Shown here: piece by piece, positions 6,633-16,563 of the stretch
Numbering within the stretch: position 1 is the first letter of the stretch
How the letters are laid out: each line of letters begins with the position of its first letter
From: Deltaproteobacteria bacterium
GTDB lineage: Bacteria; Myxococcota_A; Polyangia; JAAYKL01
DNA: 64,000 nucleotides
Assembly (NCBI GenBank): GCA_028713995.1
Contig: JAQTNF010000007.1
Span: 1,740-65,739, forward strand
Direction: 5' to 3'
Made by a program: the position numbers and the translations under genes
The notes under the pieces: generated by a model
The model's input: only the letters and a program-made list of their open reading frames with translations
Told to the model about the DNA's origin: nothing
Databases searched by the model: none

Positions 6633-7739
6633 CTATTCGAGCAGGTCCTTCAGCTTCTCGATGAACGTGCGCGGCCGCGTCTCGATCTCGGTGCCGAGCT
6701 CCTTGCCCAGCTCGGCCACGAGCTCCTTCTGGCGCGCCGTGAGCTTGCGCGGGATGTCCACCTCCACGCGCACGAGCTCGTCGCCACGTCCGCTCCCGCG
6801 GAGCATCGGAACGCCCTTGCCCTTCAAGCGGTAGGTCTGGCCGCTCTCGGTGCCCGGCTTGATCCGCATCTTGACCGGCCCGTCCACGGTCGGCACATCC
6901 ACCTCGGCGCCGAGGACCGCCTGCGGGAAGCCGACCTTGATGGCGCACAGGAGGTTCATGCCGCGTCGCATGAAGATGGGGTGATCCTGCACGTGGATGA
7001 CGATGTGCAGGTCCCCGTCCGGCGCGCCGCCCCGGCCCTGCTCGCCCGCGCCCGGAATGATCTTGACCGCGCCGTCGTCCGCACCCGCCGGGATGCCCAC
7101 CTCGAACTGCTGGTCCTTGACCGAAAGCCCGCGGCCGTCGCACCCCGGGCAGCGGTTGCGCACCACCTCGCCCGCGCCGCCGCACGACGGGCACGTGGCG
7201 CTCATGGCGAAGATCCCGCTTTCCAGCCTCACGGTCCCCGTCCCTGAGCAGCGGCCGCACTTGTCCGGCGCGGTGCCCGGCGCGGTGCCCGAGCCCTGGC
7301 ACGTGTCGCAGCGCACCGGGCGTGGGATGGTCACGCGTACGTCCGTGCCGGAAACGGCCTGCTCGAGCGTGATCGTAAGATCGTATTGGAGATCGCGGCC
7401 CGGGTGTCCTCCCCTTCGTCGCGCGCGCGGCGCGCCGCCGAAGACCGAGCCGAAGATGGAGTCGAAGAAGTCGGCCATGGAGCCGATGTCCACCGCCCCG
7501 GGGCCGCCGTGGATGCCCGGCGCGTCGTGGCCGAACCGGTCGTAGCGCATGCGCTTGTCCGGATCCGAGAGCACCTGGAAGGCTTCGGTCAGCTCCTTGA
7601 ACTTCTCGGCCGCGCTCACGTCGTCCGGGTTCTGGTCCGGGTGAAACTTCATGGCGAGCTTGCGGTAGGCCTTCTTGAGCGCGTCCGGCGCCGCGTCGCG
7701 GCCCACCCCCAGGACCTCGTAGTAGTCGCGCTTGGGCAT
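6633..7739 (-). CDS. dnaJ: Chaperone DnaJ (Hsp40)
   Basis: J-domain with HPD motif (KFHPDQNPDD). G/F-rich linker. Four CxxCxGxG zinc-finger repeats. C-terminal substrate-binding domain. Confidence 0.9.
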   Translation of the reverse strand: MPKRDYYEVLGVGRDAAPDALKKAYRKLAMKFHPDQNPDDVSAAEKFKELTEAFQVLSDPDKRMRYDRFGHDAPGIHGGPGAVDIGSMADFFDSIFGSVFGGAPRARRRGGHPGRDLQYDLTITLEQAVSGTDVRVTIPRPVRCDTCQGSGTAPGTAPDKCGRCSGTGTVRLESGIFAMSATCPSCGGAGEVVRNRCPGCDGRGLSVKDQQFEVGIPAGADDGAVKIIPGAGEQGRGGAPDGDLHIVIHVQDHPIFMRRGMNLLCAIKVGFPQAVLGAEVDVPTVDGPVKMRIKPGTESGQTYRLKGKGVPMLRGSGRGDELVRVEVDIPRKLTARQKELVAELGKELGTEIETRPRTFIEKLKDLLE

Positions 7740-7748
7740 CGGCTCGGC

Positions 7749-9593
7749 CTAGGCGGACTCGCCCTCGTCGGCGTCCTTGCCTACGCCCGCGTACATGATC
7801 TCGGCGATTCGGAAGGCCGACTGCTCGAGCTGGGCGCGGATGCGCTTGATGTGCTCGACGTCCTCGCTCAGCATGGCCTGCTTCAAGGCCACGATGTCCG
7901 CACGGATCACCTCGCGATCTCCGGGACCGAGCACGTCGCCGTACTCCTCGAGGGCGTGCTCCGATGTGTAAAGCAAGGAGTCGCCCGCCACGCGCGCTTC
8001 GGCCAGGAGCCTGCGGTGCTCGTCGTCCACCTTGAGCGCGTCCGCCTCGGCGATGATGCGGTCGATGTCGATCTTGGTGAGGCCCGACCCGGCCGTGACC
8101 CGGATGCTGTGCTCCTTGCCCGTGCCGAGGTCCCGCGCCGAGACCGACACGATTCCGTTGGCGTCGATGTCGAACTGCACCTGGATCTGCGGCACGCCGC
8201 GCGGCGCGGGTGGGATGCCCGCGAGCTCGAACTTTGCGAGCGTGATGTTGTCCTTGGCCATGGGGCGCTCGCCCTGCATCACGTGGACGGGCACGAAGTT
8301 CTGGTTGTCGAGGCTCGTGGTGAAGATCTGGCGCTTGCGGGTGGGGATGGTCGTGTTGCGCTCGATGAGCTTCGTGAACACGCCGCCGCCGGTCTCCACG
8401 CCCAGGCTGAGAGGCGTCACGTCGAGCAGCAGCACCTCGGCCATCTCGCCGGCCAGCACCGCGCCCTGGATGGCGGCGCCCACGGCCACCACCTCGTCCG
8501 GGTTCACGCCGCGCACCGGCTTCTTGCCGAAGAACTCGGCCACCGACTCCTGCACCAGGGGCATGCGCGTCATGCCGCCCACCAGGATGACCGTGTCGAT
8601 CTGGGAGACGCCCACCCCGGAGTCGGCGAGCGCCTGCTTGCACGGGCCGAAGGTCTTCTTCACCAGGTCCTCCACGATCCCCTCGAGCTCCTGGCGCGTG
8701 ATGGTCGTGATGAGGTGCTTGGGGCCGAGCGCGTCGGCCGCGATGAAGGGCAGGTTGATCTCGGTTTCGAGGGACGACGACAGCTCGTGCTTGGCCTTCT
8801 CGGCCGCCTCCTTGAGCCGCTGCAGCGCCATCTTGTCGCGCCGCAGGTCGATCTTGTGCTCCTCGTTGAACCGGTCGGCCAGGAAGTCGACGATGCGTTG
8901 GTCGAAGTCCTCGCCGCCGAGAAACGTGTCGCCGTTGGTCGACTTGACCGCGAAGACGTCGTTCTCCATCTCCAGGATCGAGATATCGAACGTCCCGCCT
9001 CCGAGATCGTAGACGGCCACCTTTTCCACGCCCCCGCCCTTCTTGTCGATGCCGTAGGCGAGCGCCGCGGCGGTCGGCTCGTTGATGATGCGCTCCACGG
9101 TCAACCCGGCGATGAGGCCCGCGTCCTTGGTGGCCTGCCGCTGGGCGTCGTTGAAGTACGCCGGGACCGTGATGACCGCCCGGTTCACCTTCTCGCCCAG
9201 GTAGTCCTCGGCCACGGAACGCATCTCGGAAAGGACGATGGCCGAGATCTCCGGAGGGCTCATGAGCTTGCCGCGGCACGTGACCCACGCGTCGCCGTTC
9301 TGCGACTTGGTGATCTCGTACGGGCACATCTTGCGCTGGCGCTCCACCTCGAGCGACTCGAACGGGCGGCCCATGAGCCTCTTCACCGCGTAGATCGTAT
9401 TCGTCGGGTTGGTGATGGCCTGGCGCTTGGATGACTGACCCACGAGGCGCTGGCCGCTCTCGGCGACGGCGACCATGGACGGCGTGGTGCGGCTGCCCTC
9501 CGAGTTGGGGATGACGATGACCTCCTTGCCCTCCATCACGGCCACGCACGAGTTCGTGGTTCCGAGGTCGATACCGATGATCCGATCAGGCAT
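7749..9593 (-). CDS. dnaK: Chaperone DnaK (Hsp70)
   Basis: [22 protein letters not shown] and [11 protein letters not shown] Hsp70 signatures. 614 aa. Confidence 0.95.
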
Positions 9594-10269
9594 GGGGTTC
9601 CTCGCCGTCCGCCGCGTCGCCTTCCTGCGGGGCCGGGATCTCTTCCTGCGGCGCCGGCGCGGCTTCGGGGGTCGCGGCCTTGGGCTTCGCCACGATGACC
9701 ATGGCCGCCCGCAGCAGCCGGTCGCCGAGCATGTATCCCTTGCGCAGGTCCTGCACCACGTGGCCCGGCGGCACCGTGTCGTGCTCGACCTGGGTGAGCG
9801 CCTCGTGCAGGTTGGGGTCGAAGGCCGCGCCCACGCTTTCGATGGGCTTCACGCCGAATTTCTCCATGGCTCCGAGGAACTGGCGTCTTACAATCTCCAC
9901 TCCGCGCAGGATGGACTCCGCCTGTCCGTCGGGCTTGGTTGCGGACAAGGCGAGATCGAGGCTGTCGATCGCGGGCAGGAGCTCGTGCAGCACCTCGACC
10001 CGGCCGCGCGCGCGGTGGTCCTCCAGGTCGCGGCGCATGCGCTTGCGCAGGTTGTCGAGATCCGCCGCGGTGCGCAGCAGGCGGTCGTGCTCGGTCGCGA
10101 GCCTGGCCTCAAGCTCGGTGACTTTGGCGGCCGGATCCTCCACGACCTCGTCGGCGGCTTCGGCTCCGTCTTCTGCGAGCACGATCTCGTCATCGGCGGG
10201 CAGAGGCTCCCCAGCTTCCTTTGTCTCGTCGGCCACCTTTCCCAAATCCTTTTCTTTCGCCTCGGTCAA
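9586..10269 (-). CDS. grpE: Nucleotide exchange factor GrpE
   Basis: Acidic N-terminus. Long coiled-coil ([26 protein letters not shown]). C-terminal GrpE beta-domain. 8-nt overlap with dnaK. The exact start is uncertain; the ORF track uses a TTG. Confidence 0.8.
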
Positions 10270-10338
10270 AGATTTAGATTATGCGTAACCACTGCTAAAA
10301 TCAACACCCGACGGCCTGTTGCGACGAGGCTTCCCCCG

Positions 10339-11055: not shown

Positions 11056-11808
11056 ATGAGGTGCGAGGAATCGAAGAAGTACCTGGACACCTACATCGAC
11101 GGCGAGCTCGAGGCCGGGCTCATGCTCGAGGTGGAGACCCACCTCTCCGAGTGCCGCGCGTGCTCGTCGCTCGTGCTGCTCGGAAGGCGCATGCGCAAGG
11201 AGCTGCGGAGCCTCGGCCGGGTCCAGGCCCCGGACCACCTGCGCAGGCGCGTGCTGACCCTTTCGGGCCGGGGACGCCGCGCCCGCCTCGTCGCCGCCGC
11301 GATCGCCGTGCCCCTGGCCGCCGCCGCGGCCCTGCTCATCGTGCTCGGACCGCCGCTGCGGGGCGGAAGCGACGACGGCCCGGTCGCCGGCCTCCTCGAC
11401 GACGTGGTGCAGCGCCACGCGAGGGATCTGCCCATGGAGGTGAAGGCCTCGGATCCGGCCGAGGTCTCGTCATGGTTCCGCGGCAAGGTCGACTTCCCGG
11501 TGGTCGCGCCCGCGCTCACGCTCGCCAACGCCAGCTTCGAGGGCGCCAGGCTCTCGAACGTGCAGTCGGATCAGGCCGCGCACATGACGTACAGCGTGGA
11601 CGGACACCGCGTGACGCTCATGATCTTCAACCCGCGGGCCGTCGCGCTGTCCGGCGGGCGGCGGGTCAAGGTGGACGGCAGGGACGTGCTGCTCGGCCAC
11701 CGCCACGGCTACAACGTGGCCGTGCTCCTCGACGGCGACCTGGCCTACGCCCTGTCCTCGGACCTTCCCGAGAGCCGGCTCGTCTCGCTCATCCGCAGCA
11801 TCCACTGA
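11056..11808 (+). CDS. Anti-sigma factor (zf-HC2/RseA-type, membrane-spanning)
   Basis: Starts 2 nt after the sigma-factor stop. HxxxCxxC zinc motif (HLSECRACSS). Single TM (LVAAAIAVPLAAAAALLIVL). Periplasmic C-domain. Confidence 0.7.
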   Translation: MRCEESKKYLDTYIDGELEAGLMLEVETHLSECRACSSLVLLGRRMRKELRSLGRVQAPDHLRRRVLTLSGRGRRARLVAAAIAVPLAAAAALLIVLGPPLRGGSDDGPVAGLLDDVVQRHARDLPMEVKASDPAEVSSWFRGKVDFPVVAPALTLANASFEGARLSNVQSDQAAHMTYSVDGHRVTLMIFNPRAVALSGGRRVKVDGRDVLLGHRHGYNVAVLLDGDLAYALSSDLPESRLVSLIRSIH

Positions 11809-13048
11809 CGCCATCCCCGCCCACACGCCGCAGGCGGTCGCGCAAGGTGGAGCGCGGCACACCGATCTCGCGCGCCGCGGAGGCCACGTTGCCCTTGTGA
11901 GAAGACACGATTTCGCTCACGCGCGTGTCCGAAAGCTCTTCGAGCCTGAAGATCCTGCGCGGCAAGGCGCGCGGCGCGGTCGCGAGAGCGAAGTCGGACG
12001 CCGTCAAGACGGGATGCGGGCTTAAGGCCGCGGCGCGGTACAGGGCCGCTCTCAGCTCGCGCGCGTTGCCGGGCCAGTCGTGTGCGGCGAGGCGTTCCAC
12101 GGCGCCCGCGTCGAGCGAGCGCCGGCCCACGTCGTCGGCCATGGTGGCGAGAAAGTGCCGGCACAGGTCCGCGATGTCCTCGGGGTGATCACGCAGGGGC
12201 GCGGTCGCGATGCAAAGGGTGGACACGCGGTGGAAGAGATCCGCCCGGAACGCCCCCTGCGCCGCCATCTCGGACAGATCCCGGTTGGTGGCGGCCACGA
12301 GGCGCACCGACACCTCGCCCACGCCCTCCTGCCCGATGCGGCGCACCCGGCCGTCGTCGAGCACGCGCAAGAGCGCAGCCTGTTGGGCCATGGGCAGCTC
12401 GCCCAGCTCGTCGAGGAAGAGGGTGCCGCCGTGGGCTTGCTCGAACAGCCCCCTGTGGGCGGTCTGTGCGCCGGTGAACGCGCCGCGCTCGTGGCCGAAC
12501 AAGGCGTCTTCCAGCAGGGACGACGTGAGCGAGCCGCAGTTGACGGCTACGAACGGCCCGCTCCTTCGCGCCGAGCACTCGTGCAGGCCGCGCGCCACGA
12601 GCTCCTTGCCCGTGCCGGTCTCGCCCGTGACGAGCACCGGAGCCTTGAGGCGGCCGAGCCGCGCCACCTGCGCGCGCAAGAGACGCATGCGGGGCGAATT
12701 CCCCACGATCCCGAGCCCGACCGCCTCGGGTCTCGCCTGTGCCGGGACTGCCGGCCGCGCCTCGTCCGCCACGGCCACGCCCGCCGCGGTGAGCGCGAGC
12801 GAGAACGGGCCCACCGAGACGCGATCCCCGGGCGCGAACGCAGTCTCGGGCGCCCCGGGATCGTCCGGGTTGGTGCGCGCGCGCCACAGGCCGTCAGGGC
12901 CGCGCAGCACGACGAGGTGCCGCTCGGCCACGCCGCCCGCGGCCAGCACCAGATCGTTGGTCGGGTGCGAGCCGATGGTGAGCCCCTCGCCGCAAAGGGC
13001 ATGGTGGGTGACCGGGACGCTGCCGTGGTACAGGGTGATTCGTTCCAT
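11789..13048 (-). CDS. Sigma-54-dependent transcriptional activator with N-terminal FHA domain
   Basis: FHA-like N-terminus (GSHPTNDLVL...). AAA+ sigma-54 interaction domain (GETGTGKELVARGLH, GAFTGA, ESELFGHE-like FGHERGAFTGA). C-terminal Fis-type HTH. Start set at MERITLYHG, which has an AAGGAGG RBS. Confidence 0.85.
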   Translation of the reverse strand: MERITLYHGSVPVTHHALCGEGLTIGSHPTNDLVLAAGGVAERHLVVLRGPDGLWRARTNPDDPGAPETAFAPGDRVSVGPFSLALTAAGVAVADEARPAVPAQARPEAVGLGIVGNSPRMRLLRAQVARLGRLKAPVLVTGETGTGKELVARGLHECSARRSGPFVAVNCGSLTSSLLEDALFGHERGAFTGAQTAHRGLFEQAHGGTLFLDELGELPMAQQAALLRVLDDGRVRRIGQEGVGEVSVRLVAATNRDLSEMAAQGAFRADLFHRVSTLCIATAPLRDHPEDIADLCRHFLATMADDVGRRSLDAGAVERLAAHDWPGNARELRAALYRAAALSPHPVLTASDFALATAPRALPRRIFRLEELSDTRVSEIVSSHKGNVASAAREIGVPRSTLRDRLRRVGGDGVSGCCG

Positions 13049-13138: not shown

Positions 13139-14122
13139 TCACTCCGCGAATCCCGCAGGCTCGAAGCCGGCCGCCTTCAGCATTGCGAGGTCGGCCTCGT
13201 ACCCCTGCCCCGGAGACGTCAGGTAGCCGTTCGTGAACATCGAGTTGGCCGGGTAGAGCGCGAGCGCCTGCAACGGACCCAGGATCCGCTCGCGGCCGCC
13301 GGCGATGCGGATCTCCTTGTCCGGATGCACGAAGCGGAACATGGCGAGCGCGCGCAGGGCGCCCTCGGGCGTGATGCGCTCCTCCGCGGCGAGCCGCGTC
13401 CCGGGGCGCGGATCGAGGAGGTTGACCGGGATGGCGTCCGCGCCGAGGTCCTTGAGGGCGAAGGCCACGTCCACGCGGTCCTCGAGGGTCTCGCCCGTGC
13501 CGAGGAGCACGCCGCTGCACAGCTCCATGCCCGCCGCCTTGGCCGCGCGCGCCGTGGCGACCCGATCCGGGAACGCGTGCGTCCCGCAGAGCGCCGGGAA
13601 GTGCCGCTCCGAGGTCTCCAGGTTGTGGTTGTAGCGGCCGACGCCCGCAGCCTCGAGCCGCGCGGCCTGGGATGCCACGAGCGATCCCAGCGAGACGCAC
13701 AGGGCGAGGGGCAGCTCGGCCTTGATGCGGCGCGCGGACTCGCACACGACGTCCAGCTCTTCTTCGCCCGGGGCGCGGCCGCTCGTCACGATGCAGTAGC
13801 GCGCGGCACCCAAGGCGTGCGCGCGGCGTGCGCCGTCCACGATCTCCTCGACGGACTGCATGTCGTAGCGCGGGATCTCGCCGTCCGATGCGGCGGACTG
13901 GCTGCAGTAGGCGCAGTCCTCCTGGCATCGCCCGCTCTTGGCGTTGCGGATCACGTGCAGCACCACGCCCCGGCCGAAACGCGCGCGCCGCAGGAGGAAC
14001 GCGCCGTGGAGCAGCTCGAGCAGATCGTCGTCGGGCGAGCGGAGCACGCCGAGCGCCTCGCTTCGCCCCACGTCGTGGCCGCCGAGCACCTCCCGCGCCA
14101 GGTCTCCGTATCGTGGCGTCAT
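13139..14122 (-). CDS. bioB: Biotin synthase BioB (radical SAM)
   Basis: CQEDCAYCSQ radical-SAM cluster motif. YNHNLETS and CSGVLLGTGET BioB signatures. ATGA start/stop overlap with the upstream larE-like gene. Confidence 0.8.
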   Translation of the reverse strand: MTPRYGDLAREVLGGHDVGRSEALGVLRSPDDDLLELLHGAFLLRRARFGRGVVLHVIRNAKSGRCQEDCAYCSQSAASDGEIPRYDMQSVEEIVDGARRAHALGAARYCIVTSGRAPGEEELDVVCESARRIKAELPLALCVSLGSLVASQAARLEAAGVGRYNHNLETSERHFPALCGTHAFPDRVATARAAKAAGMELCSGVLLGTGETLEDRVDVAFALKDLGADAIPVNLLDPRPGTRLAAEERITPEGALRALAMFRFVHPDKEIRIAGGRERILGPLQALALYPANSMFTNGYLTSPGQGYEADLAMLKAAGFEPAGFAE

Positions 14123-14931
14123 CGCACCGTCTTCGGCAGCGCCTCGTTCATGGAGCCGGTCCGGTATCCCTCGAGGTCGAGGCACACGTAGCGGTACCCG
14201 GCGTCCTTGCACGCGGCCACCACGCGCTCGCGTACGCCAGCGCCGACCGTCTCCGCGAGCCGCCCTGGCTCGACCTCCAAGCGGGCCACCTCGCCGTGGT
14301 CGCGCACGCGCAGGAGCGCAAGACCCAAAGAGCGCAGGGCCCGCTCGGCCTTGCCGATGCGCTCGAGCCGCGCGGCGGTGATCTCCACGCCGTATGGGAC
14401 GCGCGACGCCAGGCAGGCGTTGGCCGGCAGATCCGCGTTCGGCAGGCCGCGCTCCCTCGCGAGGCGCCGCACGTCGGCCTTGCCGAGCCCCATCTCAACG
14501 AACGGCGAGCGCACCTTGGCCTCGGCCGCCGCCGCGCGCCCGGGGCGGAAGTCGGAGAGGTCGTCCGCGTTGGTGCCGTCCACCACGACCTCGAAGCCCT
14601 CGCGCGTCGCGATGCGGCGCAGCTCGGCGAAGAGCTCGCGCTTGCAGTAGAAGCAGCGGTCGGGCGGGTTGGCGCGGTACTCGGGCGTGTCGAGCTCGTG
14701 CGTCTCGACGACCTCGTGGCGCACGCCGATGAGCCTCGCGAGCTGCCTCGCCCGCTCGAGCTCTTCCACGGAGTAGGTGTGGGACGTGGCGGTGACCGCG
14801 AGCGCGCGCCCTCCCAGGGCGTCGTGCGCCGCCGCCGTAAGCAGCGTGCTGTCCACGCCGCCCGAGTAGGCGACCACGGCCCCGCCCGTGTCCGCAAGGA
14901 GAGCCACGAGCGCCTCGTATCCGGGTTCCAT
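14119..14931 (-). CDS. LarE-family PP-loop ATP pyrophosphatase (sulfur transferase, TIGR00268-like)
   Basis: PP-loop SGGVDS. LarE active-site motif ACLASR. An additional CFYC pair suggests the [4Fe-4S]-binding, catalytic LarE subtype. RBS AAGGGAG. The ORF-track entry (14119..16095) is N-terminally over-extended. Confidence 0.75.
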   Translation of the reverse strand: MEPGYEALVALLADTGGAVVAYSGGVDSTLLTAAAHDALGGRALAVTATSHTYSVEELERARQLARLIGVRHEVVETHELDTPEYRANPPDRCFYCKRELFAELRRIATREGFEVVVDGTNADDLSDFRPGRAAAAEAKVRSPFVEMGLGKADVRRLARERGLPNADLPANACLASRVPYGVEITAARLERIGKAERALRSLGLALLRVRDHGEVARLEVEPGRLAETVGAGVRERVVAACKDAGYRYVCLDLEGYRTGSMNEALPKTVR

Positions 14932-14951
14932 CCGCAATGCTCCCTTCGTGG

Positions 14952-15908
14952 CTATTCGAACAGCGCGGTGCTCAGGTAGCGCTCGCCGGCGTCCGGCAGC
15001 ACGGTCACGATGAGCTTGCCCTCGTTCTCGGGCAGGGCCGCGAGCCGGCACGCGACCGCCGCGGCCGCGCCGCTCGAGATGCCGCAGGTGATGCCCTCCT
15101 CCAGGTGCAGGCGCCGCGCGTACGCGAACGCCTCCTCGTTGGAGACCGTGGCGATATCGTCGATGAGCGAGAGATCGAGCACGTCCGGCTTGAAGCCCGC
15201 GCCGATGCCCTGGATCTTGTGGGGTCCGGGTTTGGGCTCCTCGCCGGCGCGGATCGCGGTCAGCACGGGCGAGTGGATCGGCTCGACCGCCACGGAGCGG
15301 ACGGCCTTGTGCCTGGCCTGCTTCAGGTAGCGGCTCACGCCGGTGATGGTTCCGCCGGTGCCCACGCCCGCGACGAAGATGTCGACCTTGCCGTCCGTGT
15401 CGTCCCAGATCTCGGGCCCGGTGGTCTGGAAGTGGATGTCCGGGTTGGCCGGGTTCTTGAATTGCTGCGGTATGAAGAACCGCGCAGGATCCGACGCCTG
15501 CATCTCCTCGGCCTTGGCCACCGCGCCCTTCATGCCCTTGGCGCCCTCGGTGAGGAGCAGCCCGGCGCCGAACGCGGCGAGCATCTTGCGCCGCTCGATC
15601 GACATGGTGTCGGGCATGGTGAGGAGCAGCGGGTAGCCGCGGGACGCGCACACGAACGCGAGCGAGATACCCGTGTTGCCGCTCGTGGGCTCGATCACCG
15701 TGACCTCGCGCGAGCCCGGCTTCAGGATGCCGTCCCGCTCGGCCGCCCAGATCATGGCCGCGCCGATGCGACACTTGACCGAGTAGGCCGGGTTGCGGCC
15801 CTCGATCTTGGCGACCACCGTGGCGGGCAGCCCGCTCGTGATCCTGTTCAGCCGCACGAGCGGCGTGTTGCCGATGCTCATGGCGTTGTCCTCGAAAATC
15901 TTCGTCAT
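14952..15908 (-). CDS. cysK: Cysteine synthase A (O-acetylserine sulfhydrylase)
   Basis: PLP-lysine motif region ([15 protein letters not shown]), glycine loop GTGGTITG, 316 aa. RBS GGAGAGAG. Start at MTKIFEDN. Confidence 0.9.
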
Positions 15909-15934
15909 CGAACTCTCTCCTTTCCCGATCTTCT

Positions 15935-16375
15935 TCAGATCTGGTAGCTCGTCGGTCCGTCGTTCTTGACCCGCTGCCGGGTCGCCAGCTCGGCCAGGGT
16001 GACCTTCTCCAGCACACCGTCCATGGCCTCGGCCAGATCGCCCCACAAATCGCGCGCGGCGCAGTGATCGGCCCTCGTGCAACTGCCGCGGTCATTCACG
16101 CACGCGACCGGCGACACCTTGCCCTCGAGCGCCTCGAACACCTGGCGAATCGTGATATCCTTGGGATCATGCGCCAGCACGTAGCCGCCGCTCGGGCCGC
16201 GCACCGTGCGCACCAGCCCGGCCGACTTCAGGCCCGCCACCAGGTTGTGGATGTACTTGCCCGAGATCTCCTGGTTCCTGGCGATCGTGTCGACCAGCAC
16301 CGGGCCTTGCCCGTGCTGCAGCGCCAGCTCCAGCATGACCCGCAGCCCGTACCGGCCTTTCGTGGAAACCTTCAT
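15935..16375 (-). CDS. Rrf2-family transcriptional regulator (CymR/IscR-like)
   Basis: N-terminal wHTH ([13 protein letters not shown]). A C-x6-C-x5-C cluster-ligand-like segment. Start at [10 protein letters not shown]. Confidence 0.8.
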
Positions 16376-16563
16376 CCGTTCGACTCCGTGGACCTCATGA
16401 CCGGTCTCTAGCACGCAAATTCCTATTGTCAATCGGTTAAGTTGACTATTGATCGCAAGACGACCGGATCGCAATGCGACGAGGTGGACATTTGCCCGGA
16501 TTCCCTTGACTTTTCCTAGGGTATCACTACTTTTTGCGAGTACCTTCCGCGAAAGGGGCTCCC
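16376..16563. promoter_or_regulatory. AT-rich divergent intergenic region (Rrf2 regulator / GNAT) with repeated TTGTCAA / TTGACTA motifs
   Basis: ctATTGTCAATCGgttaagGTTGACTATTGATCG, and a TTGACT -35-like hexamer before the GNAT gene. Confidence 0.35.

Follow-up and report, generated by a model that had tools for sequence, protein, structure and literature searches.

Several described systems resemble parts of the locus reported here. The LarE of Thermotoga maritima binds a [4Fe-4S] cluster through C92, C95 and C172 and is catalytic when IscS and cysteine supply its sulfur (Chatterjee et al., PMC9283937). Among biotin synthases (BioB), type II enzymes carry a Ser97/Cys43 signature (E. coli numbering) and a [4Fe-5S] auxiliary cluster, and they complement E. 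coli; their sulfur donor is unknown, and a search for helper genes failed (Lachowicz et al., PMC10813225). In Bacillus and Staphylococcus, CymR, an Rrf2-family regulator, forms a regulatory complex with CysK that governs sulfur and cysteine genes (PMC2869319), and in mycobacteria BioB has an auxiliary protein, BsaP (PMC11099021). We analysed a 64,000-nucleotide stretch (the window) of contig JAQTNF010000007.1 from a Deltaproteobacteria bacterium (Myxococcota_A; Polyangia), in which the genes for an Rrf2 regulator, CysK, LarE and BioB follow one another. We conclude that they probably form one operon under common regulation, made up of housekeeping enzymes with a shared need for cysteine-derived sulfur and iron-sulfur (Fe-S) clusters, and that no new pathway is involved. 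All of the components are known, and in their order we see a variant of sulfur-gene clustering particular to this lineage.

The LarE of this locus has much in common with that of T. maritima: the SGGxDS PP-loop (SGGVDS, residues 23-28), a CXXC-C pattern at near-identical positions (Cys93, Cys96 and Cys173), the Ser and Arg residues for the substrate phosphate, and larB and larC in the same genome. It differs in lying away from larB and larC, coupled to bioB behind cysK and the Rrf2 gene, in a genome without larA. Alignment with Lactobacillus plantarum LarE (5udq; E 7e-48) places S176, R208 and R210 at S180, R212 and R214, and puts the third cysteine, C173, one position after the sacrificial Cys176. 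Across 71 LarE homologues, C93, C96 and C173 are at least 90% conserved, both of the arginines that bind the phosphate of P2CMN are invariant and the serine is nearly so. A sequence-only reading of this DNA had assigned the protein to the [4Fe-4S] type of LarE, and the match of its cysteines to the T. maritima ligands bears this out; judged by these residues, it is most likely a canonical [4Fe-4S]-type enzyme of nickel-pincer cofactor synthesis.

The same reading had noted that no larB or larC was visible, and had gone on to propose that LarE is dedicated to BioB. Neither gene lies within the window, but larB (284 bits) and larC (466 bits) sit side by side on another contig (C6) of the source genome, a 4.98-Mb, 97%-complete assembly from landfill metagenomes, so the premise holds for the window alone. 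This LarE is the single copy in the genome. A match to Lar_N (PF09861), the mark of LarA, was not found in the assembly; since larBCE without larA is common, occurring in about 15% of genomes (PMC11796402), the absence of larA is no bar to membership of LarE in this pathway. Directly upstream of larB-larC lies a gene for a 68-aa PF11823 'putative Se/S carrier' protein (C6:75511-75735; L009:2287-2490), which may carry sulfur for the synthesis of the nickel cofactor. The genome also holds six DUF362 (PF04015) genes, on contigs C40, C21, C91, C80, C71 and C93 (L207-L212).

We compared the occurrence of these genes across 61 related genomes. LarE and LarC are both present in 47 and both absent from 13; LarE stands alone in one, an 86%-complete genome, and LarC in none. 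For LarE and BioB the correspondence is looser (both in 45, LarE alone in 3, BioB alone in 8, neither in 5). The joint absences of LarE and LarC fall inside families that otherwise hold both (f5, f6 and f10), and this scatter indicates repeated events. LarC is also present in all 14 genomes checked that have the larE-bioB pair, including two distant ones (L011 and L012). In other families of the class, genomes with LarE mostly carry an unlinked, E. coli-like BioB (RFCMGAAW). Of the genomes that lack LarE, G035 has a type II BioB, and a C43/G97/H128 variant is found in four (G030, G041, G051 and G059); the presence of LarE is thus independent of BioB type among these relatives. The four variants, with His at the C128 position, belong to a single family of the class (L217-L220). 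From this pattern of co-occurrence we infer that LarE belongs to the nickel-pincer pathway and is tied neither to BioB nor to a type of BioB. The proposal that LarE serves BioB because its usual partners are missing consequently loses its footing: larB and larC are in the genome, LarE is the sole copy, and it tracks LarC rather than BioB.

The four genes lie on one strand in the order rrf2-cysK-larE-bioB, separated by 26, 20 and -4 nt, and an AAGGAG precedes the cysK start codon (Table 1). Using curated NCBIfam equivalog cut-offs as identity thresholds for CysK, LarE and BioB, as well as for the regulators CymR and IscR, we found that family profile scores and domains uphold all four gene assignments of the sequence-only reading; the ATGA overlap it described can be read directly, and larE and bioB are translationally coupled through it. 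This overlap, with the tight packing behind a single regulator gene, implies co-expression at the least.

Table 1. Positions in the window of the four genes, their junction, the candidate control site and the downstream neighbour.
Feature	Position	Strand	Support
Rrf2-family transcription regulator, 146 aa	15935-16375	minus	PF02082, 134 bits
CysK (cysteine synthase A, O-acetylserine sulfhydrylase), 318 aa	14952-15908	minus	TIGR01139, 434 bits (cut-off 351); PALP domain
LarE, PP-loop ATP-dependent sulfur insertase of nickel-pincer nucleotide cofactor synthesis, 270 aa, CXXC-C ([4Fe-4S]) subtype	14119-14931	minus	TIGR00268, 316.6 bits (cut-off 150)
BioB, biotin synthase, 327 aa	13139-14122	minus	TIGR00433, 357 bits (cut-off 225); Radical_SAM and BATS domains
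ATGA overlap of larE stop codon and bioB start codon	14119-14122	minus	read from sequence
Sigma-54-dependent activator (AAA+ and HTH_8), neighbour	11789-13048	minus	PF00158, 211 bits
Candidate operator/promoter, imperfect inverted repeat	16425-16449	minus	custom script

The regulator had been described as a CymR/IscR-like Rrf2 repressor. Its membership in the Rrf2 family stands, but it falls short of both the CymR cut-off (NF047409, 128 against 195 bits) and that of IscR (TIGR02010, 114 against 208 bits), so that of these three models it passes the superfamily model alone. Three cysteines (C92, C99 and C105) are spaced as in Fe-S-binding Rrf2 proteins, which suggests that it is probably an Fe-S-sensing regulator. 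Like the CymR-CysK system, the locus pairs an Rrf2-family regulator with CysK; it differs in the regulator's low CymR score, in the IscR/NsrR-type spacing of its cysteines, a trio not known from CymR, and in the presence of larE and bioB among the genes behind the regulator. The cymR gene of B. subtilis precedes the desulfurase-mnmA pair yrvO-mnmA, an arrangement that resembles the Rrf2...MnmA order in the related cluster of genome G024 described below.

Upstream of rrf2, a search for inverted repeats with exact seeds found none, and a looser custom script identified ATAGTCAA-N9-TTGACAAT at 50-74 nt before the start codon, with a TTGACA -35-like hexamer inside it. The core of this AT-rich repeat, CCGATTGACA, recurs before the orthologous rrf2 of G024 (L107). 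We regard the palindrome as a candidate operator.

The BioB of the window, hereafter BioB1, carries the radical S-adenosylmethionine (SAM) motif CQEDCAYC (C66, C70 and C73) and retains the YNHNLETS motif. At the auxiliary-cluster positions it has C110, C142, C202 and R277, corresponding to E. coli C97, C128, C188 and R260; these make up the type I ligand set as residues, from which a bound cluster cannot be read. With Cys97, and with His56 at E. coli position 43, it lacks the type II signature. BioB1 shares the full architecture of type I and type II enzymes (E. coli 1r30 and the Blautia obeum and Veillonella BioBs; PMC10813225). Among structures in the Protein Data Bank it is closer to 8vdw (237 bits) and 8vcw (204 bits) than to E. 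coli 1r30 (158 bits); both of the nearer structures align with Ser at 97 and Cys at 43, the type II signature, yet BioB1 has the Cys97 of type I and a histidine in place of Cys43. This combination is widespread: in 120 homologues at 59-75% identity (P0150-P0268), with labels including Syntrophales, Deltaproteobacteria and Verrucomicrobia, C97, C128, C188 and R260 are kept throughout and His43 in all but one, which has Gln43. The loci of three such homologues contain cysteine/methionine, desulfurase, MnmA, ThiF, NadA and NifU genes, without LarE. By score against Protein Data Bank structures this clade stands closer to type II enzymes than to the E. coli one, and it points to a little-noticed H43/C97 subtype of BioB.

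A second BioB is encoded elsewhere in the genome (C40:6143-7057; L002:1501-2415), with Cys43, Ser97 and an extra cysteine before R260, the type II signature; its gene follows one for a response regulator and has no larE beside it. An H43/C97 enzyme and a type II enzyme in one genome possibly serve different oxygen regimes. Of the remaining biotin genes, bioD lies on contig C5 (150 bits) and bioA on C91 (462 bits); bioF was not searched for.

Of the 21 genomes in the window's own family, 11 have larE immediately before bioB in the same orientation. G024 shows this adjacency at another of its loci, as do two more remotely related metagenome-assembled genomes (MAGs; L011 and L012), and the gaps are usually below 60 nt. 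For this pair, then, gene order is conserved among relatives, as a module of the kind first proposed would lead one to expect. The genes are 1.7 kb apart in G004 and 3.4 kb apart in G017, and in eight genomes of the family (G001, G003, G005, G006, G012, G014, G015 and G018) they are on different contigs. In the family, genes for ThiS and cysteine desulfurase precede the pair and one for ThiF or MnmA follows it, with nadA and thiG in the vicinity, as in the order ThiS-cysteine desulfurase-LarE-BioB-ThiF of G002. The linked BioBs of these relatives resemble the second BioB of our genome and not BioB1, having Cys43 with Ser97 or Gly97. A quick maximum-likelihood tree places all bioB-adjacent LarEs in one clade (Shimodaira-Hasegawa-like approximate likelihood-ratio test (SH-aLRT) support 97), a pattern suggesting that the linkage arose once and was then partly lost.

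The version in the window departs from the family norm. The cluster nearest to it belongs to G024, a member of another family, and runs on one strand in the order Rrf2-CysK-LarE-MnmA-ThiF-CBS-domain PALP enzyme-methyltransferase-Cys/Met pyridoxal-phosphate enzyme (Cys_Met_Meta_PP, CGL)-BioB. Identities are 59% for Rrf2, 85% for CysK, 60% for LarE and 66% for BioB, and five genes, over 6.6 kb, separate LarE from BioB. Further afield, larE-bioB adjacency is rare: of 56 species-level loci 2 have it, and of 65 metagenomic LarE loci, 1. In these two sets the commonest neighbour of LarE is LarB or LarC, followed by cysteine desulfurase, MnmA, CysK, ThiF and Rrf2; the metagenomic counts are about 16 for LarB or LarC, 5 each for NifS and MnmA, 4 for CysK and 1 for BioB. 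Unrelated lineages (L027, L032, L132 and L172, comprising Thermoleophilia MAGs and metagenome contigs) also have Rrf2 and CysK genes at a distance of 1-3 kb or less from LarE; these share its strand, vary in order and come without BioB. The link of larE to Rrf2 and cysK may be of wider occurrence than its link to bioB.

Searches among longer homologues of LarE and of the type II BioB2 revealed no LarE-BioB fusion, though these were limited by word sharing and make weak evidence; BLAST of LarE against long proteins containing BioB likewise gave nothing. The fusions recovered with LarE as query are with HAD hydrolases, in many proteins, with LarB (AIRC) and with an ABC ATPase, and those recovered with BioB2 are mainly BioB-BioA, with a single BioB-NadA and a single BioB-BioY; the LarE-LarB, LarE-HAD and BioB-NadA fusions are among P0005, P0023, P0032 and P0003-P0027. 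A literature search for larE and bioB together returned unrelated word matches, and the 9 listed of 12 papers that mention both LarE and biotin synthase give no hint, by title and abstract, of treating gene linkage.

How might such an operon work? The Rrf2 regulator would control the unit from the AT-rich palindromic site upstream, and CysK would make cysteine. LarE would adenylate P2CMN and pass on its cluster-bound sulfide, being recharged from cysteine presumably via a cysteine desulfurase; with the products of larB-larC on the other contig it would yield the nickel-pincer cofactor. BioB would convert dethiobiotin to biotin, with bioA and bioD elsewhere in the genome. A single regulator could thereby match the expression of all the genes to sulfur or Fe-S status, and a common dependence on cysteine-derived sulfur and Fe-S supply would be the reason for their clustering. 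Several observations weigh against this picture. A consensus scan found no promoter or terminator at threshold. A LarA gene, which would encode a client enzyme for the nickel cofactor, is absent from the 97%-complete genome. Finally, no unit of the neighbourhood is more constant than larE-bioB, which spans at least eight genera although LarE identity is 42-54% and the flanks vary, and this constancy hints at selection on the pair itself.

Alternatively, LarE may give cluster-bound sulfide or persulfide to BioB, besides or instead of its role in the nickel cofactor; the auxiliary cluster would then be re-sulfurated or rebuilt for further turnover, and the operon would form a relay of sulfur from cysteine to biotin. 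The translational coupling, the persistence of the adjacency in and beyond the family and its endurance across genera while flanking genes change all speak for this idea, as does the type II-like character of the linked BioBs in relatives (Cys43 with Ser97 or Gly97), given that type II enzymes are those whose donor is unknown and for which no helper gene was found (PMC10813225). A [4Fe-5S] species is moreover common to [4Fe-4S]-type LarE (PMC9283937) and type II BioB (PMC10813225), and BsaP provides a precedent for a gene-linked Fe-S helper protein needed by some BioBs (PMC11099021), although this small protein has no relationship to LarE. We nevertheless consider such a relay unlikely. LarE follows LarC and not BioB; type II-like and Gly97 BioBs occur without LarE in the same class, and many genomes with LarE have an unlinked E. 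coli-like BioB. Control searches in Bacteroides thetaiotaomicron found BioB and no LarE, and the type II BioBs that complement E. coli do so in a host without LarE (PMC10813225). By the LarE tree the linkage arose once, it is rare elsewhere, BioB1 itself has the Cys97 of type I, and the known chemistry of LarE requires an adenylated carboxylate, which the BioB substrate does not offer. Together with the retained P2CMN-binding residues, these points leave the original proposal of a dedicated sulfur supply for BioB mostly unsupported.

A further possibility is that the adjacency is a lineage-specific leftover of gene order without function, made once, partly eroded, and in the window re-created by a deletion within a larger sulfur cluster. 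Consistent with this, the bioB-linked LarEs form a single clade, and LarE and BioB of the same types are 6.6 kb apart in G024; they are separated by shorter distances in G004 and G017 and lie on different contigs in eight family members. This too seems improbable to us, because the 4-nt overlap and the close spacing of the genes behind a single regulator gene point at least to co-expression, the pair persists through several genera while the genes around it change, and the sulfur genes that repeatedly accompany it are not a random set. Least credible, and in our estimation very improbable, is that LarE and a BioB-like radical-SAM enzyme act together on some other substrate in a new C-S bond-forming pathway. 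The second BioB on C40 could leave BioB1 free to diverge, and the clade of BioB1 has a near-invariant histidine at E. coli position 43; yet BioB1 scores above the BioB equivalog cut-off with its radical-SAM, auxiliary-cluster and YNHNLETS motifs all kept, its 120 close homologues from many phyla are annotated as BioB, and most family members have no BioB other than the LarE-linked one. LarE, for its part, retains the residues that bind P2CMN, and the operon contains no extra biosynthetic genes. The operon of housekeeping enzymes sharing a sulfur source, with LarE in the nickel-pincer pathway, therefore remains the explanation we favour.

On the far side of bioB, the sigma-54-dependent activator gene starts 90 nt past the bioB stop codon on the same strand. 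The consensus scan placed no terminator in the intervening stretch, and the 61 nt that follow bioB fold no better than shuffled sequence (z 0.52); the activator, whose N-terminus has a weak FHA/YscD-like match, probably lies outside the operon. Minus-strand open reading frames at 6633-10278 were judged by eye to include a dnaJ-like gene (KRDYYEVLGV), with dnaK and grpE assigned by position.

The question of how BioB regains its sulfur between turnovers is sharpest for the anaerobe-type (type II) enzyme. If LarE did recharge a coupled BioB in this myxobacterial lineage, it would be the missing sulfur-delivery factor sought for type II BioB, and the conserved, coupled larE-bioB pair is a cheap lead, the one part of the locus worth a bench test. 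The chief value of the locus is as an illustration of how bacteria bring cysteine synthesis together with cofactor enzymes that consume sulfur, under what would be a single Rrf2 regulator.

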